The notes under the pieces were generated by a model. The model was not told where the DNA came from, made no database searches, and saw nothing but the letters and a program-made list of their open reading frames with translations. The position numbers and the translations under genes are program-made. A DNA stretch of 64,000 bases. Source: Candidatus Kapaibacterium sp. (GTDB taxonomy: Bacteria; Bacteroidota; Ignavibacteria; Kapaibacteriales; UBA2268). This document shows positions 3 to 64,000 of this stretch, piece after piece. How positions within the stretch are numbered: position 1 is the first letter of the stretch; each line of letters begins with the position of its first letter. Location: NCBI GenBank assembly GCA_965140345.1, contig OZ223197.1:1070726-1134725 (forward strand), written 5' to 3'.

Positions 3-728
3 GCAAATCCTCAAGATGGGTTTCAGGATGTAGATGTATCAATAGATTCAATAAATTATAAATTTACTGACGGCAAGGTAACTAAAGTATTCAATACTAT
101 GGATATGACACCTTCCCCGCTTAGCTTTCAAGATTACTTGATGATTGGCCCTACTATCAGCCAGAAATATAAGTTGACTTATTCGCCTTACGGGGAAGTA
201 TCAAAAATAACCGGTAGGAGTTTGCAAGATGCAATAAAAATGCTCGACCATGATGTATTTGGTGTTAAAGATCCTGTGAAAAAACAAATTTGGCAAAACG
301 CCTATTCTTTTGCACATCTAATATTTCTTTCTGATGTAACAAAAAATTATTTTCCGCAGGGAAAGATTACAAGAGATTCTGTTTGGAAGAAGCTAGTCTC
401 ATTAGATTTAAATAGAGTTTATTTTCAGGATACAGTTAAAGCCACTATTGATGATATTAAGCCATCTAGATATATTTTAAAAGGTAGTATGGATTCACTT
501 AAAGCAATTTCAAATACAGCTATGCTTTATGATATTAAAGAACCAGTCCAAATAAAGGATGCTAAAGGTAATGGTATATTAGACATTGACTTTACTCCTG
601 CTGGTGTTATTGAATTTGTTAACGGTGATTTTATTACTAATGTAGAGTATGACTATAAAGGTAAGAAAATACGAGAAATAGCAGAAACAAAGTTAAAATG
701 GGAACTTCTCAATAGGCTTACTTATTAA
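3..728 (+). CDS. hypothetical protein, 5'-truncated at window edge (the frame of the 99..728 ORF stays open back to position 3)
   Basis: No stop codon between position 3 and the Met at 99 in the same frame (..ANPQDGFQDVDVSIDSINYKF..). No recognisable domain. Confidence 0.45.
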   Translation, partial: ANPQDGFQDVDVSIDSINYKFTDGKVTKVFNTMDMTPSPLSFQDYLMIGPTISQKYKLTYSPYGEVSKITGRSLQDAIKMLDHDVFGVKDPVKKQIWQNAYSFAHLIFLSDVTKNYFPQGKITRDSVWKKLVSLDLNRVYFQDTVKATIDDIKPSRYILKGSMDSLKAISNTAMLYDIKEPVQIKDAKGNGILDIDFTPAGVIEFVNGDFITNVEYDYKGKKIREIAETKLKWELLNRLTY

Positions 729-804
729 ACCTACAATCAAAAAATAATCTAATAAAAGGTATTCTAATATTCTAGAATACCTTTTTTTGATTTACCTAAA
801 ATAT

Positions 805-1266
805 CTAGTAATCATTCAATTTTGAAGGATAATCAATTCGTTTCCCATCCTCTGTTGAGTATTCTTCCAAAGAATTTTCCTTTGACTGGATACACATATA
901 AACCATATTTTCATCAGAAGTGTTTTTCAGTGATCTTACACCATTAGGAGCAACTCTTATTATACTACCTTCCTTAATAGGAAAGCAATTCTCATCTACT
1001 TGGTATAAGCCTGAGCCTTTTAGAATAATATAAGTTTCTTCATCTTTATAGTGAATGTGAAAATATCCCAGTTCTGAATGAGGCGGGATTGAATTAAAAG
1101 AAATTTCAGTTCCGGTAGCACCAGTCTGCTCTTTTAAAAACACTTTACCTTTAATCTCAGTTCCAAGTTTCGGATGAATCATAGAATAATTTTTTATATC
1201 ATCTATGTTCCCTATATTGACCGAAGTATAATTACGATCCGCTGATATTTTCTCTATTTTTTTCAT
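805..1266 (-). CDS. cupin-domain protein
   Basis: 153 aa. The motif YFHIHYKDEETYIILKGSGLY is typical of the cupin beta-barrel fold. Confidence 0.5.
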   Translation of the reverse strand: MKKIEKISADRNYTSVNIGNIDDIKNYSMIHPKLGTEIKGKVFLKEQTGATGTEISFNSIPPHSELGYFHIHYKDEETYIILKGSGLYQVDENCFPIKEGSIIRVAPNGVRSLKNTSDENMVYMCIQSKENSLEEYSTEDGKRIDYPSKLNDY

Positions 1267-1277
1267 ATATTTCTTCT

Positions 1278-1805
1278 CTATTTAGAGTTATACAATGCAA
1301 TTACTTTATTAAGATCTAACAAATTATCTAATTCATAGAAATATTTTAACTGCCAAAGCTGACTTTTCTCTGCATTTTTATTGCCTGGATTATCCCACGA
1401 AGGATACACTCTTAGAGCAAGTTTACCCAATTTATCGTTGGTTGAAATTATTCCTTTTTCAATCAATACAGATTTAGGAAAAACAAACTGCCCCATTTTA
1501 GATTCAGTTATTACATTTATAGCGATAAAGTCTATTATATCTGATTCGTTGATTGGTTCAATGTTATTATTTATTCTTTTCCAGCATGTTACAAATTGAC
1601 CAGTTTTTTTGGGAGTTATTTTGGAAGTTCTGGACATTACTTGATAACTATTAAGTTGGAATTTGCATGCTTCGTATTCATGACTTCCTGGTTCTTCTTT
1701 ATAATCAGATAAAACCCAACCACATTTATCATAAATCTCAGACTTGATTCTTCTCAAAGCATCGAACATCTTTTCCTCTAAGTAATAATTTATGTTGTTT
1801 AACAA
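1278..1805 (-). CDS. hypothetical protein, possibly MepB-like
   Basis: 175 aa. The segment EACKFQLNSYQVMSRTSKITPKKTGQFVTCW..RVYPSWDN resembles the MepB-like family from memory; not verified. Confidence 0.35.
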   Translation of the reverse strand: MLNNINYYLEEKMFDALRRIKSEIYDKCGWVLSDYKEEPGSHEYEACKFQLNSYQVMSRTSKITPKKTGQFVTCWKRINNNIEPINESDIIDFIAINVITESKMGQFVFPKSVLIEKGIISTNDKLGKLALRVYPSWDNPGNKNAEKSQLWQLKYFYELDNLLDLNKVIALYNSK

Positions 1806-1930
1806 CTAATATCTTAGAACAAAATTGTAAATGTATTTTATTTTACGAGATACAAAAGAAAAAGTTAGTTCAGTTTTATTTGAAGCTAAAAAGAATGTAC
1901 TTGAAACTTATTAAATCAGGGAAGCTAAAT

Positions 1931-1976
1931 ATGAAAAAAAACAGGCTACCTAATATTTGAATTAGATAGCCCGTTT
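1931..1976 (-). terminator. rho-independent terminator downstream of the mmd/oad decarboxylase operon
   Basis: Read on the minus strand: hairpin gggctatctaat..attaggtagcc followed by a U-run (A-run 1933-1940 on the plus strand). Confidence 0.5.
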
Positions 1977-2010
1977 AGAGTTGTGATTTATATCAAACTA
2001 AATATCGATA

Positions 2011-3153
2011 TTATGCTCCTAGCAAGAAGCTAAGCAAGATACCTGCAGCTACTGCAGAACCGATTACACCGGCTACGTTTGGAGCCATTGCATGCATCAA
2101 TAAGTAGTTAGAAGAATCTTCTTCCTGTCCCATAGAATGAACTACACGTGCACTATCAGGCACAGCAGATACACCTGCAGCACCAATCATTGGGTTCAGC
2201 TTGTTTCCATCTTTCAAGAATAAATTCATAATTTTTGCAAAGATAAGACCACCAGCTGTTGCAATCATAAATGATACCGCACCTAGTACGAAGATCAAAA
2301 TAGATTGAGGAGTCAAGAAAGTAGTTGCTTGAGTTGAAGCACCCACAGTCACACCCAGCAAGATCGTTACTGTATCAATCAATGGTTTGCTGGCAGTATC
2401 AGCCAAACGTTTAGTTACACCTGATTCTTTAAGCAAGTTACCGAAGAACAACATACCTAGTAGCGGTAAAGCACCAGGAGAGATAAATGTTGTTAAAACC
2501 ATACCAAAGATTGGGAAGATAATTTTTTCAACTTTAGAAACCGCGCGAGGAGGTTTCATTTTGATTTTTCTTTCTTCTTTAGAGCAAAGAAGTTTAATAA
2601 TTGGCGGTTGGATAACCGGTACAAGAGCCATATAAGAATATGCAGCAATTGCAATAGAACCAATTAAGTGTGGTGCAAGTTTAGAAGAAATAAAGATTGC
2701 TGTAGGACCATCAGCACCACCGATAATACCGATTGCTGCTGCTTCATCTACAGAAAATCCTAAAACTAATGCAGCCAAGAAAGTAAGGAAAATACCAACC
2801 TGAGCTGCTGCACCCAGTAACATTAGTTTAGGATTGGAGAGCAAGGCAGAAAAATCTGTCATCGCCCCTATTCCTAAGAATATTAAAGGAGGATAAATAC
2901 CTTTGGTAACCCCCATATAAAGGTAGTTAAGAACACTACCACTTTCATATATACCTAATTGTAAGCCTATATTTTCTACAAAAGGAATATTACCGATTAA
3001 TATACCAAACCCGATAGGAACAAGAAGTAATGGTTCATAGTCTTTTACAATAGCTAATGTAATAAAGATTAGCCCGACTACAATCATTACAACGTGTCCA
3101 AGAGTCATGTTATAAAAACCGGAAAACTCCCAGAATTGCATTAAACCTTCCAT
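2011..3153 (-). CDS. oadB: Na+-translocating decarboxylase beta subunit (OadB/MmdB family)
   Basis: 380 aa polytopic membrane protein with the characteristic OadB-like sequence. It sits in an operon with a biotin carrier, an OadG-like gene and a carboxyltransferase. Confidence 0.88.
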   Translation of the reverse strand: MEGLMQFWEFSGFYNMTLGHVVMIVVGLIFITLAIVKDYEPLLLVPIGFGILIGNIPFVENIGLQLGIYESGSVLNYLYMGVTKGIYPPLIFLGIGAMTDFSALLSNPKLMLLGAAAQVGIFLTFLAALVLGFSVDEAAAIGIIGGADGPTAIFISSKLAPHLIGSIAIAAYSYMALVPVIQPPIIKLLCSKEERKIKMKPPRAVSKVEKIIFPIFGMVLTTFISPGALPLLGMLFFGNLLKESGVTKRLADTASKPLIDTVTILLGVTVGASTQATTFLTPQSILIFVLGAVSFMIATAGGLIFAKIMNLFLKDGNKLNPMIGAAGVSAVPDSARVVHSMGQEEDSSNYLLMHAMAPNVAGVIGSAVAAGILLSFLLGA

Positions 3154-3159
3154 GTTAAA

Positions 3160-3594
3160 TTAGCCCCCGATTTCCATTAGAACATCACCTTCAAGAACTG
3201 ACTGCTCTATACTTACTTTAATAGAAGTTACTTTACCTGCTCTGTCAGCTTTGATTTCATTTTCCATTTTCATGGCTTCCATAATCATTACAGTTTGTCC
3301 AGCTTCAACAGTATCGCCTTCTTTAACTTTAAGAGCCATAATTAGACCCGGTAATGGAGCTTTAAGCTGTCCTGTACCTTTTGCACCGCTAGGATTGCTT
3401 GTTCTTGCAGTAGAGCTGTTGTTAGGAGTAGCTTGAGATCTAACCAATTTAGGAGTTTTTGAAACTTTTTTCTCTCTGTGAATAGTTACTTCATAAGTAG
3501 TACCATTTACCTCGAGAGTAGCAATATCATCTTCGATATTTTGAATTTCAACATCGTAGTTATTACCACGGATTGTAAATTTATACTGCTTCAT
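3160..3594 (-). CDS. biotin carboxyl carrier subunit of the decarboxylase (MmdC/BCCP-like)
   Basis: C-terminal biotinyl domain with the EAMKM motif (IMEAMKMENEIKA). Confidence 0.8.
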   Translation of the reverse strand: MKQYKFTIRGNNYDVEIQNIEDDIATLEVNGTTYEVTIHREKKVSKTPKLVRSQATPNNSSTARTSNPSGAKGTGQLKAPLPGLIMALKVKEGDTVEAGQTVMIMEAMKMENEIKADRAGKVTSIKVSIEQSVLEGDVLMEIGG

Positions 3595-8898: not shown

Positions 8899-10098
8899 TT
8901 ACAAATTTGATAACAGATGCCCCATTTTTATCTTTTTTGTTTCCAAATAGTGATGATTACAAGAATTTGGTTCAATCTCCACAGGAACACGTTCTGTAAC
9001 GTTTAGACCGTAAGATTCCAAGCCTACTCTTTTTTTAGGATTATTTGTAATCAATCTCATCTTTTTCACACCTAGATTCATTAGTATCTGAGCACCAATA
9101 CCGTAATCTCTGGCATCTGCAGCAAAACCTAATTCAAGATTTGCTTCGACAGTGTCTCTGCCTTGTTCCTGAAGAGCATATGCTTTGACTTTATTGATCA
9201 AGCCAATACCTCTGCCCTCCTGTCTCATATATAATAAAACGCCTTTACCGTCTTTTTCGATCATTCTTAGTGCAGCATGAAGCTGAGAGCCACAATCGCA
9301 TCTAAGTGAACTAAAAACATCTCCGGTCAGGCATTCCGAGTGAACTCTAACCAGAACATTATCTTCTTCAGTCAAATCACCTTTCACTATAGCTACATGT
9401 TCTTTGCCATCAACTACATTTTCATATACTTTTATTTTGAAATGTCCATGATCAGTTGGCATGTCTGCTTCCGCAACACATTCAACCAAAGATTCTTTTT
9501 TTAGCCTATATGCAATTAAGTCTTTAACTGTTATAACTTTTAAGTCATGCTCTTTTGCAAATTCGATCAATTCAGGCATTCTTGCCATTTGACCATCTTC
9601 TCGAATAATTTCGCAAAGAACACCACTTGGCTTAAGCCCGGCAAGTCTCATTAGATCTACCGTAGCCTCAGTGTGTCCTGCTCTTCGAAGTACACCTTCT
9701 TTAACTGCTATTAGCGGAAAGATATGCCCGGGTCTTAATAAGTCTCCAGGTTTTGTATCTTTATTTGCAATAGCTCTTATTGTAGCAGCTCTGTCGTTTG
9801 CAGAAATGCCGGTAGTTGTGCCATGAGCATAATCTACAGAAACAGTGAACTTAGTTTCGTGCAGAGCAGAATTATCTCTTACCATTACATCAAGCTCCAG
9901 CTCTTTGGCTCTCTCAGGTGTAATTGAAACACAAATCAACCCTTTGCCCTTTGAAGACATGAAGTTAACTGTTTGCGGAGTTATAAGCTCAGACGCACAA
10001 ATCAAATCGCCTTCATTCTCTCTATCTTCATCGTCCATGACCACAATCATTTTTCCGGAGACTAAATCCTGCAAGGCTTCTTCTATTGTATTTATCAT
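8899..10098 (-). CDS. ribBA: bifunctional 3,4-dihydroxy-2-butanone-4-phosphate synthase / GTP cyclohydrolase II
   Basis: DHBP synthase motifs RENEGDL and GHTEATVDL; cyclohydrolase II motif [20 protein letters not shown]. Confidence 0.92.
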
Positions 10099-10140
10099 TT
10101 CCGTACCCGGTTATATTATAACTACCCTATATAATAAACA

Positions 10141-10170
10141 AATCTTTCACCGTTTGTGCGGTGAAAGATT
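10141..10170 (-). terminator. hairpin (12-bp perfect stem) downstream of yajC; probable terminator
   Basis: aatctttcaccg-tttgtg-cggtgaaagatt, followed on the minus strand by the U-rich stretch tgtttatt. Confidence 0.4.
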
Positions 10171-10230
10171 TATAGTCATTTCTTTTGAACTACGCTATCA
10201 AGTTACAAAATTTTTCTTTAATAAAAAAAA

Positions 10231-10539
10231 TTATGACTTAGATGAGATAGCAACTTTTTCAAATTTTATTTTAACATTTTCAGCAACTTCTACTACTGCG
10301 GTTTTTTCATCAACTTCTACAACTTTACCATGCATACCTGATGAAGTTACTACTTTATCGCCTTTTTTAATACCATTAAGCATAGCCTGATGTTCTTTCT
10401 GACGTTTTTGTTGCGGGCGAATCATCATGAAGTACATGATAAGAATTACACCACCAAACATTACTAATGTGCCGACCATATTACCGCCGCCTTGTTCTCC
10501 ACCCTGAGGTGCCATAGCTAGTAGATTTAAGAAATCCAT
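10231..10539 (-). CDS. yajC: preprotein translocase subunit YajC
   Basis: 102 aa with a TM helix and the IRPQQKRQKEHQAML..GDKVVTSSGMHGKVVEV signature. Confidence 0.85.
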   Translation of the reverse strand: MDFLNLLAMAPQGGEQGGGNMVGTLVMFGGVILIMYFMMIRPQQKRQKEHQAMLNGIKKGDKVVTSSGMHGKVVEVDEKTAVVEVAENVKIKFEKVAISSKS

Positions 10540-12076: not shown

Positions 12077-12114
12077 AATTATTATTATTTGATTGTTTTA
12101 TTATAAGTTTTTAT

Positions 12115-12122
12115 TATCTTTG
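12115..12122 (+). promoter_or_regulatory. TAtcTTTG (-7-like) motif 27 nt upstream of the first paralog
   Basis: Matches the TAnnTTTG consensus recurring upstream of start codons in this window. Confidence 0.25.
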
Positions 12123-12148
12123 CTTTTTTATCATGAATTGAGTAATTA

Positions 12149-12826
12149 ATGAGAACAAATTTAAAACATTACTTATTAACAATCCTAATATTTTTTTGTC
12201 TATTAACGCCCGCAGCTCTTTTAAGTCAGGAAACTACATATCGTTCTCTATCAAAAAAGGAAGTCGATAGTTTTAAAAAAGAACAATTTTTTAGATTTGG
12301 ATTTGCTTATTCACCTTTCCAAGTATTTTCATTTGAGTATGATAAAAACAAAGAGAATTTTCTAAGTTTATTCAACATGACTTATAATATGGATTATTTT
12401 ATCAATAAAAATATGTTTTTGTCTACACACTTTGGATATCTATTTGGCACAAACATTTTAAATAATTCAAATAATTATGATTTTCAAGAGAGAAGATCGC
12501 ATTTATATTTTGCTGATCTGAGTTATGGCATCAAAAATGATTTTTTATTTGCATCTTTAGGCTTAGGCTACAGCTACTGTTATTATTACAACGAGATTGA
12601 TGACTATAATACTCTTAGGAACAATAAACATTACTACGATTTTGCTAAAAACATCAACTCATCAATCAATTTAGTTTCTAGAGTAGGGGTAGACTTTAGA
12701 TTTGTTAATATCCATCTGAGATATGATTTAGGTCTAAGTAATTTGCGTGACCAAGAGATTGACATAAGCAACAGATCTGTTTTCGGGCTCATTTTCGCTA
12801 TTAATTTCGGTCAGTTTTTGGATTAA
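12149..12826 (+). CDS. secreted small beta-barrel-like outer membrane protein, paralog A1
   Basis: Signal peptide. Shared motifs FRFGFAYSPF, GLGLGYSY and LRYDLGLSNLRDQE. Confidence 0.6.
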   Translation: MRTNLKHYLLTILIFFCLLTPAALLSQETTYRSLSKKEVDSFKKEQFFRFGFAYSPFQVFSFEYDKNKENFLSLFNMTYNMDYFINKNMFLSTHFGYLFGTNILNNSNNYDFQERRSHLYFADLSYGIKNDFLFASLGLGYSYCYYYNEIDDYNTLRNNKHYYDFAKNINSSINLVSRVGVDFRFVNIHLRYDLGLSNLRDQEIDISNRSVFGLIFAINFGQFLD

Positions 12827-12881
12827 AGCCTTTCTTTTAGCTACTAAGAATTTTTAATATTGATAAATTTCCGGGAAGAAT

Positions 12882-13622
12882 ATGCTACTCAAAAAAATAT
12901 TATTGCTATCTCTTCTATTATTTTTTTCGTTGATTACTCTTAATGCTCAGGAAAATAACAATCAAAGTTATAGAAGTGATAATTTGCAAGAAGCAAAAAC
13001 TGATGATCTGATATACAGGAGTGCCACGTCTTCTGACATAATTGATACAAATAATATAATCAACCATTTGGGTTTTACCATCTTTTATACTCCGCTAAAT
13101 ACAATGTTTTTTGGCAATGAGTACAGAGAAGACAATCATCAGGTAAGTATTTTAAATTTTGGTTTGGGTTTAGACTACTATCTATCTAAAGCTGATGAAT
13201 ATATAAGCTTCAATTTTGGATACCAGCATTACTTCATTGGAGATGGATTAGACTTGAATATAACTATCAATACAGAGTATATGAACCATTATTTTACAAA
13301 TTTGACTTATACACAAGTTTTCAATAAATTTTACATCGGCTTAGGCCTAGGCTACAGCTATACATATTACAAAAGAGAATTTGAAGTAAAAGAATACAAG
13401 TACGAATATGATCCGAACAAAGAACCTGAATACTATTATTATTATTATTATGATCAGCCAAGTGCTTCATTAGATTTAATAGTAAATTTTGGGATGGAAG
13501 TTGCCAAATATCTGCAAATAGGTTTTAATTCTCATGTAGCCATGCTGTTTTTGCGCGATCAGGAAACAGATTTTTCACACAAAGCAAGCATGGGACTTAC
13601 ATTCAGACTAAAGATACATTAA
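12882..13622 (+). CDS. secreted small beta-barrel-like outer membrane protein, paralog B1
   Basis: Signal peptide. Motifs GLGLGYSY and LFLRDQETDFSHKASMG. Contains a run of seven Tyr encoded by (TAT)6. Confidence 0.6.
   Translation: MLLKKILLLSLLLFFSLITLNAQENNNQSYRSDNLQEAKTDDLIYRSATSSDIIDTNNIINHLGFTIFYTPLNTMFFGNEYREDNHQVSILNFGLGLDYYLSKADEYISFNFGYQHYFIGDGLDLNITINTEYMNHYFTNLTYTQVFNKFYIGLGLGYSYTYYKREFEVKEYKYEYDPNKEPEYYYYYYYDQPSASLDLIVNFGMEVAKYLQIGFNSHVAMLFLRDQETDFSHKASMGLTFRLKIH
13434..13451 (+). repeat. (TAT)6 trinucleotide microsatellite inside paralog B1, encoding a poly-Tyr stretch
   Basis: tattattattattattat seen directly in the sequence. Confidence 0.9.
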
Positions 13623-13690
13623 TCAATTTCACTTATACTTTACGAAAAACAAAAATATTTTTTGACCCTTTTTATAGTTAAGAATTCAAT

Positions 13691-14416
13691 ATGAAATTAC
13701 ATAATATCAAAATCTTTATCTTTGTAATATGCATTCTAAGCATTGGAATGAATTATGTATCCTATAGTCAATACGAATCACTTAATCAGACTAAAGATAC
13801 TTTAATAAACAATGACATACCCAGCTTGCGTTTTGGTGTGTTCTACTCTCCATTGAGATTTTATAGTTTTGGAAATGATGAAATCAGCAAGACTTGCTGG
13901 GCTCCCGGAAATATGTCTTACAATGTAGATTACGTTTTTAATAATTACTCTTTTTTGAGCTTAAACTTTGGTTTTCTAATAGAGGCCACCTTATCAGATT
14001 ATTATGAAGCTAATTACCATTACTCAGATTCACATCTCTATTATGTTGATCTAAGTTATTTCATTCAAAAAGAATTTTTCCATTTAGGTTTAGGATTAGG
14101 ATACTCTTATTTTGATTACTACGAAGAATATGAATATCCGGACGATCCGCCATATAGTGATTATGAATATTTTTATTTAAATCATAAAAATTCTTCTCTG
14201 GACTTCAGTTTAAGATTTGGTGCCGAGCTTTTTGGCACTATAAATTTAGACCTAAGATATAGCATTGGACTACTAAACTTAAAAGATCAAGAAGTAAATT
14301 TTAGTAGAAGATCTATATTTGGTCTTGTCCTGGGTATTAAACTTCCAAGTTTTGATAGCTTTAATAAATACAAGCAAATCAAATACTTAGACGGTAAAAT
14401 TAGAAAATCAATATAA
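13691..14416 (+). CDS. secreted small beta-barrel-like outer membrane protein, paralog A2
   Basis: Motifs LRFGVFYSPL, GLGLGYSY and LRYSIGLLNLKDQE. Closest to A1. Confidence 0.6.
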   Translation: MKLHNIKIFIFVICILSIGMNYVSYSQYESLNQTKDTLINNDIPSLRFGVFYSPLRFYSFGNDEISKTCWAPGNMSYNVDYVFNNYSFLSLNFGFLIEATLSDYYEANYHYSDSHLYYVDLSYFIQKEFFHLGLGLGYSYFDYYEEYEYPDDPPYSDYEYFYLNHKNSSLDFSLRFGAELFGTINLDLRYSIGLLNLKDQEVNFSRRSIFGLVLGIKLPSFDSFNKYKQIKYLDGKIRKSI

Positions 14417-14434
14417 CTATTATTTGGAAAGCAA

Positions 14435-15121
14435 ATGCATAAGGTCTATAAATACTTATTAACAATCATAATATTACTTTCTCTATTTGGCAATACTTTT
14501 GCACAAAATATAGAAATTGAAGAAGCAAAAAGCGATACCACTGCCACTATTTCAGAAAATACTCTAAGATTTGGTTTATCTTATTCTTTATTCAACTTCC
14601 TCTTCTTTGGCAATGATCACAAAAAAGATAATATGAATGTTTCTTTTAGAAATATTTCTCCAAATTTGGATTATTATATAAATCAAAATACTTTTTTGAG
14701 TCTTAAACTAGGTTATGACTTTTATAGGTATGGAGGAGATGATTATTTATATTATCATGAGCATATAGATAACTTTTATGTAAACCTCTTATTTTCTAAA
14801 TATCTAACAGATGTTTATTACGGAATTGGATTAGGATTTAGTTACACTTACCATATTTGCGAATATGAGTATGAAATGTACCAATATATACCAATCATAG
14901 GTGAAACTCTTTATATTGGAAATAAATATTATTTATTTGAACAGAGGAATTCGTCTCTTGATCTTGCTTTTCAAATAGGTACAGAATTTTTGGATTATAT
15001 AAATTTTGGATTGGATTTTAAAATTGCTTTGCTAAATCTAAGAGATCAGACCAATGATTTTACACATAAAGCAACAATGGGAATAACCATTGGCCTGAAA
15101 TATCCTAAATATAAAAAATGA
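14435..15121 (+). CDS. secreted small beta-barrel-like outer membrane protein, paralog B2
   Basis: Motifs LRFGLSYSLF, GIGLGFSY and LLNLRDQTNDFTHKATMG. Closest to B1. Confidence 0.6.
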   Translation: MHKVYKYLLTIIILLSLFGNTFAQNIEIEEAKSDTTATISENTLRFGLSYSLFNFLFFGNDHKKDNMNVSFRNISPNLDYYINQNTFLSLKLGYDFYRYGGDDYLYYHEHIDNFYVNLLFSKYLTDVYYGIGLGFSYTYHICEYEYEMYQYIPIIGETLYIGNKYYLFEQRNSSLDLAFQIGTEFLDYINFGLDFKIALLNLRDQTNDFTHKATMGITIGLKYPKYKK

Positions 15122-16751: not shown

Positions 16752-18875
16752 ATGCTTGAATATTTTAAAAATAGGGTATCAAATCTAAAAAGCAACTACT
16801 CTTCCTATAGAATAGTAACATTCTTTGCTTTATTGCTTTTTTCTTTTACAAAAATGGCTTTAGATACCACATTCTTCTCTATCAATGAGAATTTCTTTTT
16901 AACATTTGATTCCTGGCATTACAGCTCTGAGATTGTACTTTTTATTACTTTTGTTGCCTATTATTTCACTCTTCCGAAAATAAACAGAAATATTGAACAC
17001 GAACAAATAAATGCTGTATTTTTCAAACGACTGAAAAGTATGTTGTTTCATTTTGGAGTTTATTGGATATTTTCTGTTCTTCTGGGGATTATATCTGATA
17101 TTACACGAGATCCTGATTTATCAATCATCCTACTCTACGATATAAAACTAATATACTCTCTTTTTGTATTGGGAATCCTATGCAAATTTGTTTTAGATTG
17201 GGTTTTATATTTTAGAACATCTTCAACTAAAAAACACCTGGTTTTTATTACTATCAATTTGGTATTAACTTCAATAGGTCTTTTTCTGTCTGAGATAATA
17301 AAATCAGAAAATCTCGATTATATCAATCTAATAAGCTCTTTATTATTAACTGTTTTGCTGATTTCAATATTTGTATTGCCTAAAAAAAATGCGTGGGTAG
17401 CTGCCTTATCTTATAAAAATAAACTTTTACTGATATTTATAATCCTTGCTATTTCATTTTTTATAATACCTGAATTTATGCTGGGAATTATAGGAATGGA
17501 TTTTGGAAGAACAATTTTGTACTTCAAAGCTCCAATATCTAACAGTATGTTAGATATTATCGCAGTATCAGTGCTTGCTTTCTTTTTACGAATAATTGTG
17601 TCTACTCTTGCTGCTTGGCCTACAACAAAAATTGTTGCTAAAAAAAATATAGAATTAGAATCACTTTCAACTTTAAATCGGTTTGTAGTTGAAACTTTAA
17701 ATAAGTCCCCTGATAAAATTATAGGGACAGCTTCCCAAATTGCGCGACAAATGACTAATGCTCATTCGGCTTGGACTGAGATTTATACAGAGAGCTCTAA
17801 AGATATTTCTTATTCTTTCAACATATCTCAAAAGAATCTTGGATATATTAAATTCTATACTCACTTTTCAGAATTTTTTAAATCTTGTAATGATACCACA
17901 TTAGTTGATTCGATTCCTGAGCATGACTATTTATATCCAATAGCAGATACAATTACTTATGCAAAATCGATGATTATTCTGCCTTTATATACGGCACAGG
18001 ATAGACTTGGTACATGTATTCTTTTAAAAGATTCACTTTATGGATTTGATGCAGAAGATATAACTATCTTGAATACTCTCTCTCAGAATCTTTCAATTGC
18101 ATTGCATAATGCAAGTCTAGTCCAGGACTCAATTGAAAAAGAAAAGTATAAAAATGAGATGCTTCTTGCGCAGACTATTCAAAGAAATCTACTACCTAAA
18201 GAAGATCTCTCTACACAAGACTATTCAATAGCAGCTTTTACAGAGCCTGCACAGGAAGTCGGGGGTGATTATTACGATTTAGTATATTTAAAAGATAAAA
18301 CGCCGTGTTTGTTGATTGCTGATGTATCCGGCAAAGGTATGTCTGCAGCTATTATTATGTCTCAGATGAAAGGAGCGGTACAGGCATTAAGTCCACTAAG
18401 CAGTTCAGTCTCTGAGTTACTAAAAAAACTAAATAGTACTCTGTTTGGAACAATTGGCAGAAAGAATTTTATCACTATGGCAGGTTTAGCTTTAAAACCA
18501 GATGGCACTATCTTTTTTGTGAGAGCAGGTCATGCTCCAGTTTTTGTAACGCGTGAAAACAAGACAGTCAAATATATGCCCAAAGGTCTGGGAATAGGCT
18601 TGGTAGGCGCATCTATGTTTGACAAAAATTTAGAAGAAGTAGAGTTGAAACTTAATAAAAACGACAACGTATTACTGATAACTGATGGAATTAACGAAAT
18701 AAGTAACGAAAAAAATCAACAGTTTGGCTACGAACATTTGATTAATATTTTAGAAGAAAAAGAATTGACTTTGGCGAACGATATTAATCGCAAAATTAAA
18801 AAGAAAATTGATTCTTTTTCCACTGATGACGCTTATATTGACGATATGACTGTTATCAGTCTTATATACTGCTAA
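16752..18875 (+). CDS. polytopic membrane sensor with a C-terminal PP2C (SpoIIE/RsbU-family) serine phosphatase
   Basis: About 280 aa of multi-TM N-terminus, a GAF-like middle region, and a C-terminal domain with DVSGKGMSAAIIMSQMKGAV that is typical of SpoIIE-type PP2C. Confidence 0.8.
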   Translation: MLEYFKNRVSNLKSNYSSYRIVTFFALLLFSFTKMALDTTFFSINENFFLTFDSWHYSSEIVLFITFVAYYFTLPKINRNIEHEQINAVFFKRLKSMLFHFGVYWIFSVLLGIISDITRDPDLSIILLYDIKLIYSLFVLGILCKFVLDWVLYFRTSSTKKHLVFITINLVLTSIGLFLSEIIKSENLDYINLISSLLLTVLLISIFVLPKKNAWVAALSYKNKLLLIFIILAISFFIIPEFMLGIIGMDFGRTILYFKAPISNSMLDIIAVSVLAFFLRIIVSTLAAWPTTKIVAKKNIELESLSTLNRFVVETLNKSPDKIIGTASQIARQMTNAHSAWTEIYTESSKDISYSFNISQKNLGYIKFYTHFSEFFKSCNDTTLVDSIPEHDYLYPIADTITYAKSMIILPLYTAQDRLGTCILLKDSLYGFDAEDITILNTLSQNLSIALHNASLVQDSIEKEKYKNEMLLAQTIQRNLLPKEDLSTQDYSIAAFTEPAQEVGGDYYDLVYLKDKTPCLLIADVSGKGMSAAIIMSQMKGAVQALSPLSSSVSELLKKLNSTLFGTIGRKNFITMAGLALKPDGTIFFVRAGHAPVFVTRENKTVKYMPKGLGIGLVGASMFDKNLEEVELKLNKNDNVLLITDGINEISNEKNQQFGYEHLINILEEKELTLANDINRKIKKKIDSFSTDDAYIDDMTVISLIYC

Positions 18876-18960
18876 AAATCGGTATGCTTCTTGATAGAAT
18901 ATAAATTAGATTATGATATTCAATGCTGAAGATCACAATAGTTAACAAAGGAAAAAAAAT

Positions 18961-19341
18961 ATGCCTGCTAATAACAAATTTGGTATTACTAAAAAACAAA
19001 ACGATGGCATAGACTGCTTTTATCTAGAAGGTTATTTAGATGCTCACACTGCGCCACAGCTTGAATCTGCTTTCCAGGAAAGTATAGACAAAGAAAACTA
19101 TAAGATTCTTGTAAATTTCAAAGATCTGGATTACATCAGTAGTGCAGGGTTGGGTGTTTTTATGGCTTTTATTGAAGATATAAGGAATAAAGGCGGAGAC
19201 ATCAAGCTTTCTTCTATGCAGGAAAAAGTTTTTTCCGTGTTCGATTTATTAGGTTTCCCAATGCTTTTTGATATTGAAACGAGTGAAACAGATGCTATTG
19301 ACAAATTCTTATCTCCAAACACACATGACATCAATAAATAA
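18961..19341 (+). CDS. STAS-domain anti-sigma factor antagonist
   Basis: 126 aa with LDYISSAGLGVFMAF, the SpoIIAA/RsbV signature. Confidence 0.8.
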   Translation: MPANNKFGITKKQNDGIDCFYLEGYLDAHTAPQLESAFQESIDKENYKILVNFKDLDYISSAGLGVFMAFIEDIRNKGGDIKLSSMQEKVFSVFDLLGFPMLFDIETSETDAIDKFLSPNTHDINK

Positions 19342-19768
19342 ACATATAGATAATATCTGCGTTAAAGCTGATTTTTCTGAACTTGAAAAGATCAGGGATT
19401 TTGTCTTTATGCATGCTAAAGAATACTATTTTTCTGAAATAGATGCTCAGAAAATCACTTTGGCTGTTGATGAAGCGTGTACAAATCTGATGCGTTATTC
19501 TTATAACTGCAAATGTAACTTCTCTATTTCTATAGAGATTATGATTTCCAACAATGAATTCGTTGTTCAAATTATTGATGAAGGAGAACCTTTTGATCCG
19601 CTTTCAGTCGAATCTCCCGACATGAAGAAATATTTTGCTGAATTTAGAAAGGGCGGTTTAGGTATTCATATTATGCGTAGCGTTATGGATAACATTAATT
19701 ACCAGCCTTCTGAAAAATCCGAAAGAAAAAACGTATTAAAACTAACAAAATTCCTTCCTAACTCTTAA
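19325..19768 (+). CDS. anti-sigma regulatory factor (RsbW/SpoIIAB-type Ser/Thr kinase, HATPase_c)
   Basis: N-box AVDEACTNLMRYSY and G-box GGLGIHIM. The ATG at 19325 was chosen because it gives only a 17-nt overlap with the STAS gene. Confidence 0.72.
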   Translation: MTSINKHIDNICVKADFSELEKIRDFVFMHAKEYYFSEIDAQKITLAVDEACTNLMRYSYNCKCNFSISIEIMISNNEFVVQIIDEGEPFDPLSVESPDMKKYFAEFRKGGLGIHIMRSVMDNINYQPSEKSERKNVLKLTKFLPNS

Positions 19769-40244: not shown

Positions 40245-40318
40245 GCCGGGGTAGCTCAGTTGGTTAGAGCATCGGAATCATAATCCGAGTGTCGGGGGTT
40301 CAAATCCCTCCCCCGGTA
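40245..40318 (+). tRNA. tRNA-Met (anticodon CAT), elongator-type; tRNA-Ile2 (lysidine) cannot be excluded
   Basis: Manual cloverleaf fold: acceptor gccgggg/ccccggt, D-arm tagctcagttggttagagca, anticodon loop atCATaa, T-loop ttcaaat. CCA is not encoded. Confidence 0.88.
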
Positions 40319-40377
40319 CATAACTTCACAAAAGTTATGTATCGAGAAAAATCTCACTCCAGAAGAAAAATATTGTT

Positions 40378-40451
40378 GCCGGGGTAGCTCAGTTGGTTAG
40401 AGCATCGGAATCATAATCCGAGTGTCGGGGGTTCAAATCCCTCCCCCGGTA
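40378..40451 (+). tRNA. tRNA-Met (anticodon CAT), identical second copy
   Basis: 74/74 identical to the copy at 40245..40318; the 59-nt spacer contains a small hairpin. Confidence 0.88.
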
Positions 40452-40464
40452 CAATAACAAATTT

Positions 40465-63233: not shown

Positions 63234-63253
63234 CAAATCTAAGCATTTATAGC

Positions 63254-64000
63254 TTATAATAAGCCACGTTTTTTCAGTAAAGGTTCAACTTGTGGTTCGC
63301 GACCACGGAATGCTTTAAACATTTCCATAGCGTCTTCGGTTCCACCTTTTTCTAAGATATTTTTTCTAAATGATGTTGCAGTTGCTTGATCAAATAAGCT
63401 TGTTTCTTTAAAAGCTGCAAACACATCTGAATCAAGAACACCACACCAGATATATCCGTAGTAGCCTGCAGAATATCCAATTGGATCGCTGAAAATGTGA
63501 CGGAAATAAGTTGATCTGTAACGAACAACGATTTCATCAATCATATTATGTTTAGCTAAAGATTCTTTTTCGAATGCATTACATTCAACTTCTTTAGGTT
63601 CAGTCCAAGTGTGCCAATCCATGTCTAAAAGAGCAGCTGACATGTATTCTGTAGTTACAAATCCCATATTGAATTTGCCTGCATCCTGGATTTTTTTGAT
63701 TAATTCATCAGGGATTACTTCACCTGTTTCATAATGTTTAGCGTACAGTTTCAACATTTCAGGCTCGCCGCACCAGTTTTCCATCACCTGAGAAGGAAGT
63801 TCAACGAAGTCACGAGATACAGCAGTACCAGTCACTGAAGGATAGTTAGCTTTAGTAAGCAATCCGTGCAATGCATGACCAAATTCGTGGAATAAAGTAG
63901 TTACTTCTTCAAAAGTTAGCAATGAAGGTTTGTCACCTGCAGGTTTAGTAAAGTTACAAACATTACAAACGATTGGAGTTTTAAGGTTACCGTCTAAGTT
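63254..64000 (-). CDS. M3-family zinc metallopeptidase (oligopeptidase A / Dcp-like), N-terminus beyond the window
   Basis: HEFGHALHG zinc-binding HEXXH. The frame stays open to the window edge. Confidence 0.8.
   Translation of the reverse strand, partial: NLDGNLKTPIVCNVCNFTKPAGDKPSLLTFEEVTTLFHEFGHALHGLLTKANYPSVTGTAVSRDFVELPSQVMENWCGEPEMLKLYAKHYETGEVIPDELIKKIQDAGKFNMGFVTTEYMSAALLDMDWHTWTEPKEVECNAFEKESLAKHNMIDEIVVRYRSTYFRHIFSDPIGYSAGYYGYIWCGVLDSDVFAAFKETSLFDQATATSFRKNILEKGGTEDAMEMFKAFRGREPQVEPLLKKRGLL

Follow-up and report, generated by a model that had tools for sequence, protein, structure and literature searches.

We analysed a window of 64,000 nucleotides (nt) from the genome of Candidatus Kapaibacterium sp. 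(contig OZ223197.1), and we identified in it a tandem array of four consecutive same-strand genes, here called A1, B1, A2 and B2, which code for small paralogous proteins predicted to fold as eight-stranded β-barrels of the outer membrane (OM). The first, A1 (12149-12826, + strand), codes for an A-type protein of 225 amino acids (aa), with a signal peptide at residues ~1-26, a disordered linker at ~27-46, and eight strands between 47 and 223. It is followed by B1 (12882-13622, +; 246 aa), a B-type protein that has a long N-terminal linker and is, of the B copies, the one with the greatest divergence, by A2 (13691-14416, +; 241 aa), an A-type protein with a Lys-rich C-terminal tail of ~20 aa beyond strand 8, and by B2 (14435-15121, +; 228 aa), a B-type protein that is orthologous to the B gene of other species. 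The array sits between a vanZ-like gene and tgt on one side and nnr on the other. Coordinates and lengths match those given in the initial annotation of the window, which had described four consecutive same-strand genes of 225-246 aa at this position.

Full-length alignment of the four proteins gives identities of 26-35%, and the columns that are invariant across them include G-x-G-x-S-Y, D-Y, and L-[RK]-D-Q, in agreement with the shared sequence blocks noted at first. BLASTP scores are higher within types (106 bits for A1-A2 and 108 bits for B1-B2) than for the four cross pairs (49-86 bits), and the A/B split receives 100% bootstrap support in a neighbour-joining tree to which orthologs were added. 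The A-B-A-B alternation originally read from short motifs is therefore borne out, and a sliding-window comparison further shows that B1 is B-type over its entire barrel. We could not find any sign of recent duplication or gene conversion in a DNA repeat search of the array, which gave only matches of 14-44 nt over conserved motifs; the absence of long nucleotide repeats between the array genes indicates that the duplications are old. Two short DNA stretches are 83-89% identical between A1 and B2, one in the signal peptide (12170-12204 and 14453-14487) and one in strands 2-3 (12386-12421 and 14663-14698). This exceeds what would be expected from the overall A/B divergence, and may reflect either old micro gene-conversion or mere chance.

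At the N-terminus, all four proteins have a basic n-region and then a hydrophobic stretch, judged by eye to be a signal peptide. We obtained AlphaFold2 (AF2) models for A1 (predicted local distance difference test score, pLDDT, of 73.9, from a 4-sequence alignment) and for B2 (pLDDT 80.9, from an 11-sequence alignment). The two models are alike, with an N-terminal helix that corresponds to the signal peptide, a linker of low confidence, and eight long antiparallel strands that close into a barrel. All eight strands are amphipathic, one face being hydrophobic and the other made of small or polar residues, as in strand 5 of B2, where the two faces read V-Y-I-L-F-Y-Y-I and G-G-G-S-T-H-C, respectively. 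The initial annotation had proposed a signal peptide and about eight amphipathic β-strands, and had named a lack of predicted β-barrel topology as grounds for abandoning its view; the helix and eight strands of the A1 and B2 models are what it had anticipated. Barrel residues that face inward are Gly, Ser, Thr and charged ones, as in non-porin barrels, and the eight strands are contained in ~180 mature residues. The last strands end in ...AINF, ...RLKIH, ...GIKLP and ...GLKY, and are followed by 0-23 more residues. From these models, we have high confidence that the four proteins would belong to the eight-stranded OM barrels of the OmpA transmembrane domain (OmpA-TM)/NspA/OmpW class, and not to the 16-18-stranded porins. 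The porin module that had been put forward as a candidate is unlikely given this class and the Gly/Ser/Thr/charged character of the inward residues. Similarly, we discarded a general porin, which has at least 16 strands and an open water-filled pore, since eight strands are predicted.

Segments rich in Tyr, Asp and Glu are present in all four proteins at the same position, the connection between strands 5 and 6, consistently with their earlier assignment to one predicted loop. On the + strand, they correspond to 12599-12649 in A1 (residues 151-167, the shortest of these segments and the one of lowest confidence), 13362-13469 in B1 (residues 161-196, TYYKREFEVKEYKYEYDPNKEPEYYYYYYYDQPSAS), 14111-14185 in A2 (residues 141-165, FDYYEEYEYPDDPPYSDYEYFYLNH, placed by alignment with the other hairpins), and 14846-14947 in B2 (the outer halves of strands 5 and 6, from the AF2 secondary structure). 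In the B2 model, strand 5 (127-152, 26 residues) and strand 6 (157-185, 29 residues) are joined by the 4-residue turn PIIG, and this hairpin block has a pLDDT of 85-93. The other strands of B2 are much shorter (13-18 residues), so that the hairpin overshoots the barrel by 10-15 residues per strand, and the Tyr-rich "insert" would be a β-hairpin projecting past the barrel rather than a floppy loop. As a general rule, even-stranded OM proteins (OMPs) have both termini in the periplasm. With this usual topology, the hairpin would represent extracellular loop 3, and the L-R-D-Q block would lie in extracellular loop 4, beside the hairpin base.

From one paralog of the array to another, the hairpin sequence is strongly dissimilar. 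Across species, that of the B2 type hardly changes: in the B orthologs from three other species (L2_B, L5_B, and the single protein of L003; see below for these loci) it reads YTYH[IV]xEYE[YD]ExxYQY[IF]P...GNEYY[LF]F. Hairpins of the A type are less conserved, and span fewer residues of the alignment window (30-33 versus 37-38). Most of the seven-Tyr run of B1 is encoded by a perfect (TAT)6 repeat (13434-13451). In-frame slippage is possible at this repeat; its length is constant in three strains, one of which (L009) reads YYFYYYF.

We then consider how far this family extends. The initial annotation had been unable to place the proteins beyond a generic OMP barrel and had suggested HMM searches, and these gave no Pfam or NCBIfam family above threshold. 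The closest case is OMP_b-brl (PF13505), whose Pfam gathering cut-off is 28.7 bits: A2 scores 20.2 bits (E 7e-4), below this cut-off, A1, B1 and B2 have no match to it, and the orthologs P0011 and L5_A remain sub-threshold with 15.6 and 18.0 bits. The three matches are near-full-length, spanning profile positions ~33-173 of 175. Neither the four proteins nor their orthologs match the OmpW family (PF03922), and the OmpA family was also set aside, because its C-terminal peptidoglycan-binding domain (PF00691) is unmatched and little or nothing follows strand 8 in the proteins. Searching the PDB sequences with the family profile yielded nothing meaningful, and the clusters retrieved by a word-indexed protein search were all the queries themselves or near-identical to them. 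An exhaustive hidden Markov model (HMM) search of 1.84 billion cluster-representative proteins gave nine matches at E<=0.001, seven of which belong to the family; of the remaining two, both weak, one is the most distant match of the family profile and is an ordinary OMP_b-brl/OmpW-like protein with a genuine PF13505 domain. Two scans of Joint Genome Institute (JGI) metagenome contigs, run with the alignment of the whole family and with that of the B clade, respectively, gave no relatives, and a scan of 185,579 species genomes gave five loci, three real and two marginal matches in Sphingobacterium. The ~7 relatives are limited to a few Kapabacteria genomes, all at the same syntenic locus, and we could not find any further paralogs, either elsewhere in the 64-kb window or in the flanks retrieved for the related loci. 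None of the family proteins carries a name in the sources checked. At the sequence level, this is an undescribed family, confined to one genus or family of bacteria.

In every genome that has the locus, the family is always found between vanZ and nnr. The same four genes are present in a sister strain (L001, ~98-99% nucleotide identity), and a 4.9-kb contig of a third strain (L009) includes A1, B1 and the start of A2. Two other species (L002 and L005) have exactly one A gene, followed by one B gene after 9 nt and 11 nt, respectively. A further species (L003) has a single gene of 240 aa that is B-type along its whole barrel, which rules out an A/B chimera, and the 96-nt spacer has no room for an A remnant. 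A comparative survey of this kind had been suggested at the outset, and its result is that A-B does occur as a unit at the same locus in two other species, and that copy number does differ between species, being four, two (A+B, in two species), or one (B-type, in one species); within the species, L001 has the same four genes and the L009 contig is partial. In L002 the vanZ side is rearranged (462-3217), a transposase fragment adjoining vanZ and tgt being missing; ~7 kb away, this genome also codes for a 653-aa OmpA-family protein and an ordinary 224-aa OMP_b-brl protein.

The gene tree groups B2 with L2_B and L5_B (98% bootstrap) and A2 with L2_A and L5_A (56-68%), while B1 and B2 are sisters in 0% of the replicates, and A1 and A2 in 17-39%. 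From these sequence relationships, A2 is probably the ortholog of the A gene of the two-gene species (56-68% bootstrap). The groupings indicate that A2-B2 is a conserved pair and A1-B1 an older, divergent extra pair, which was either lost from the other lineages or gained from an unsampled relative. Identity to the Nnr protein of the window is 80% in L003, 75% in L002 and 70% in L005; since A+B is present even in L005, the most distant of these genomes, the single gene of L003 is most simply explained by loss of A. Since the A/B split precedes the duplication of the pair, the data back the duplicated two-gene module of the initial annotation, but the extra pair is not a recent one, given the absence of any support for B1 and B2 as sisters.

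Between the window and L001, the flanking genes are 99-100% identical, with a synonymous divergence (dS) of ~0.02. A mosaic tract at approximately 12300-13200, from the middle of A1 to the start of the B1 barrel, has instead 42-95% nucleotide identity to L001, and includes a 15-codon insertion/deletion in the B1 linker, bordered by YRS/YKS. In strands 1-4 of A1, dS rises up to 1.15, versus ~0.02 in the flanking genes. With respect to L009, the first half of A1 is closer than the background, and B1 codons ~110-210 (13211-13510, hairpin included) are 77-82% identical against a background of ~95%. The variation of A1-B1 is a recombinational mosaic of old alleles among the three strains, in which identity of the flanking genes is 95-100%, and the region looks like a recombination hot spot. 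In L001, A2 and B2 retain 98.8% and 97.4% identity to their counterparts in the window.

The whole-gene ratio of non-synonymous to synonymous divergence (dN/dS, or omega) is 0.13-0.28 for the array genes between strains, versus 0.01-0.05 for tgt, and together with the presence of orthologs in three other species this indicates that the array open reading frames (ORFs) are real genes and not chance. Between-strain dN is 0.25 in the A1 hairpin segment versus 0.066 in strands 1-4, and in B1, compared with L009, it is 0.29 in the hairpin versus 0.06 in strands 1-4. Hairpin dN is therefore four to five times that of the barrel core; dS is saturated, and hairpin omega is 0.25-0.49. Only the signal-peptide/linker segment of B1 has an omega above 1, a value that rests on one synonymous and eight non-synonymous changes. 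Classic diversifying selection is unsupported by the whole-gene and hairpin ratios; the hairpin pattern is one typically seen where OMP segments are exposed at the surface and evolve under relaxed or frequency-dependent selection, and is no proof of positive selection. Of the diversifying surface loop first suggested, what stands is that the replacements between strains in A1 and B1 cluster there; what does not is its nature, as it is predicted to be a structured hairpin of 26+29 residues, is conserved among the B2 orthologs, and has an omega below 1.

The N-terminal linker has a further feature. In A2, B2, L2_A, L2_B, L5_A, L5_B and the single protein of L003, we found one D(S/T)(A/I/L/V/M/T) motif per protein, always within the linker, at two differing alignment positions, and none elsewhere in the protein. 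This motif is the O-glycosylation sequon as given for Bacteroidetes in PMC8550257. It corresponds to D36-T-L in A2 (13796-13804, +) and to D34-T-T in B2 (14534-14542, +), each being the sole occurrence in its protein; A1 and B1 are devoid of it and have DSF and DTN at the corresponding residues. From shuffled sequences, the per-protein chance of having one motif in the linker and none elsewhere is 0.03-0.04. Concerning the Bacteroidetes Q-rule (a Gln after the cleavage site), it seems to fit the four window proteins and fails in the orthologs, and the paper that describes it states that the rule is not valid across the whole Fibrobacteres-Chlorobi-Bacteroidetes (FCB) group; we did not use it as evidence.

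Upstream of the array, on the - strand, are the VanZ-like gene (129 aa), tgt, yajC and ribBA, while nnr (YjeF_N+Carb_kinase, 509 aa) is downstream and convergent; these labels come from Pfam hits recorded for the locus of the sister strain L001. The G+C content of the four array genes is 0.24-0.31 versus 0.34-0.41 in the flanks, and fits the composition of the encoded proteins, which are rich in Tyr, Asn, Phe, Lys and Ile. Spacers between array genes measure 55 nt (A1-B1), 68 nt (B1-A2) and 18 nt (A2-B2), and a divergent intergenic region of 72 nt (12077-12148) separates vanZ from A1. This last region harbours the sole TAnnTTTG motif (similar to the Bacteroidota -7 element) of the array, at 12115-12122; it precedes the start of A1 by 27 nt, and we could not find it in any of the three internal spacers. 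Its placement gives a weak indication of an expression signal for the array, and a scan of the array for sigma-70 promoters and terminators gave nothing above chance. It is plausible that the four genes are co-transcribed.

The next genes of the window after nnr form an RsbU-like module (16752-19768) that is kept in all related loci. It codes for a membrane protein of 707 aa that has multiple passes and a SpoIIE/PP2C phosphatase domain, for a STAS protein of 126 aa, and for an anti-sigma-type kinase of the HATPase_c_2 family. Farther along the window are two tandem tRNA-Met(CAT) genes (40245-40319 and 40378-40452) with equal Rfam scores and starts 133 nt apart, and, near its end, a tRNA-SeC(TCA) (63241-63316) that is predicted by ARAGORN only and is absent from the Rfam gathering-threshold scan. 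Finally, a 181-aa ORF with a GTG start (9845-10390, +) runs antisense to ribBA and yajC; being Ser-rich and overlapping two conserved genes, it is almost certainly no gene.

We propose that the four genes of the array code for a lineage-restricted family of eight-stranded OM β-barrels that would be exported by Sec and inserted by the β-barrel assembly machinery (BAM). Each protein would consist of a signal peptide, a disordered N-terminal linker of 20-40 residues that presumably lies in the periplasm, a narrow barrel with Gly, Ser, Thr and charged residues lining its lumen, and the hairpin, in which strands 5 and 6 overshoot the barrel rim and which, with its aromatic/acidic (Tyr/Asp/Glu) residues, is expected to stand out from the cell. 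At the vanZ-nnr locus, an ancestral gene would have been duplicated into A and B types, and the tightly spaced A-B pair would have become the unit of inheritance, with two diverged, probably co-transcribed copies of it in this species. These proteins may function as surface-exposed structural or recognition (adhesion-type) barrels, the hairpin being their working part, and not as diffusion pores. The A2-B2 pair would carry out the core job, and A1-B1 would be a variable pair whose old alleles are shuffled between strains by recombination. Taken as a whole, with Sec export, BAM insertion, an outward hairpin as a recognition or contact element, a non-porin barrel, a core A2-B2 and a variable A1-B1, we consider this picture to be reasonably probable.

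A number of points weigh against it. The aromatic residue that canonically closes the C-terminal β-signal is missing, as the last residue is not Phe, Tyr or Trp in any of the four proteins, and the alignments behind the structure models are shallow (4 and 11 sequences). When the four proteins and their orthologs were scanned against Pfam and NCBIfam, every match was either spurious or below threshold, and no curated OMP family covers them. The family profile was also compared by hhalign with two genuine OMP_b-brl proteins, with resulting probabilities of only 1% and 24%, so that sequence homology to OMP_b-brl is not demonstrable. Moreover, the topology, with periplasmic termini and the hairpin outside, is assumed from the general even-strand rule, and an adhesion or structural role is proposed by analogy.

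Some of the same data could be read differently. The four proteins might be independent and redundant paralogs, each barrel acting alone, that provide a variable surface repertoire against phages, predators or bacteriocins, a reading that partly overlaps with ours. It would account for the differences in copy number among species (four, two, one), for the deep mosaic of A1/B1 alleles in three strains, two of which have flanks that are 99-100% identical, for the hairpin being the main site of amino-acid replacements, and for the (TAT)6 microsatellite behind the Tyr run of B1. However, omega is below 1 except in the B1 signal-peptide/linker segment with its one synonymous and eight non-synonymous changes, the length of the Tyr run is constant in the three strains, the B2-type hairpin is strongly conserved between species, and the distinction of A and B types and the gene order are conserved, which pure redundancy would not need. 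We regard such a repertoire as possible but not likely.

Alternatively, A and B barrels might associate, for instance edge-to-edge via their Tyr-rich hairpins, into an obligate heteromer in which neither would function without the other, in line with the heteromeric pair that the initial annotation had raised as a possibility. Most eight-stranded barrels of this class are monomers, which counts against such an assembly, as does L003, which has a B-type gene only and where the B type appears to have no strict need for A. What makes it attractive is that three species-level lineages keep the A-B order, the short gaps of 9-18 nt being suggestive of equal co-expression, that the two types have been distinct since before the divergence of these species, and that a long hairpin with hydrophobic and aromatic residues on both faces would be more stable if packed against a partner. 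A precedent exists in the same bacterial group, where Pgm6 and Pgm7 of Porphyromonas gingivalis form heterotrimers (PMC6112661). An obligate heteromer nonetheless seems to us unlikely. Its most elaborate form, in which the hairpins of an obligate A-B hetero-oligomer would be zipped extracellularly into an aromatic β-sheet or stalk, the periplasmic tail would be O-glycosylated, and recombination of A1-B1 would alter surface specificity, is quite improbable.

We attach an equally small probability to an OmpW/AlkL-like uptake channel with a hydrophobic path and a lateral opening for small hydrophobic compounds, in which A and B would have different substrate ranges. The barrel is of the eight-stranded class to which OmpW belongs, but the four proteins have no OmpW match in Pfam, the inward residues of the membrane part are Gly, Ser, Thr, Asp, Lys and Glu and not hydrophobic, and no hydrocarbon- or lipid-metabolism genes are among the neighbours. 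A lipid A-modifying OM enzyme of the PagL/PagP type is very improbable, as the PagL catalytic triad is His-x-Ser...Glu, and in alignments of 10-13 members the invariant His is missing, with Gly or Leu two residues before the invariant Ser of GxGxSY.

The reading of the array as a lineage-restricted set of small surface barrels gives a structural class to hypothetical proteins from a handful of uncultured Kapabacteria genomes. It also offers a compact case of OMP expansion at one fixed locus, from one gene to an A-B pair and then to two pairs, with one pair being conserved while the extra pair gathers recombining alleles. If a specific interaction turned out to depend on A-B pairing or on the Tyr-rich hairpin, the array would become a small and tractable model for heteromeric small barrels, and zipped A-B hairpins would be a surface structure of eight-stranded barrels without earlier description. 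As it stands, it is an addition to the catalogue of small OMPs, a lineage-specific expansion of a familiar protein type and not a new system.

Among known systems, NspA (1P4T) and the N-terminal membrane domains of OmpA and OprF (3NB3, 4RLC) are likewise of the eight-stranded class, with an identity of just 8-14% to the array proteins and no sequence-family match. The array proteins differ from these in having strands 5 and 6 extended to 26-29 residues as a protruding hairpin and an additional N-terminal linker of 20-40 residues, and, unlike OmpA and OprF, they have no C-terminal OmpA peptidoglycan-binding domain. They resemble OMP_b-brl (PF13505) by their near-full-length profile matches, whose scores of 15.6-20.2 bits are nevertheless below the cut-off of 28.7, and they differ from OmpW (2F1T) and AlkL (6QWR) in lacking an OmpW-family sequence match and in lumen residues that look polar. 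Pgm6 and Pgm7 of P. gingivalis are two paralogous OmpA-like OMPs that are heterotrimeric and O-glycosylated (PMC6112661). The array is similar to them in the adjacency of its A and B genes and in the presence, in most members, of one O-glycosylation-type motif; Pgm6 and Pgm7 are larger, OmpA-family proteins, whereas the array proteins are bare barrels.

Neisseria Opa, Brucella Omp25/Omp31 and Anaplasma Msp2/P44 are comparable to the array in being multi-copy small barrels, with several paralogs per genome, variable surface segments and recombinational mosaicism. With respect to these, the array has no phase-variation repeat in its signal-peptide region, has an omega below 1, and occurs in environmental uncultured bacteria as a single tandem array with a fixed A-B order. 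In its fold, architecture and genomic behaviour, with tandem paralogs and variable surface segments, the family is of a very well-known type, and only two traits set it apart, its long hairpin rich in Tyr and the conservation of the A-B order.

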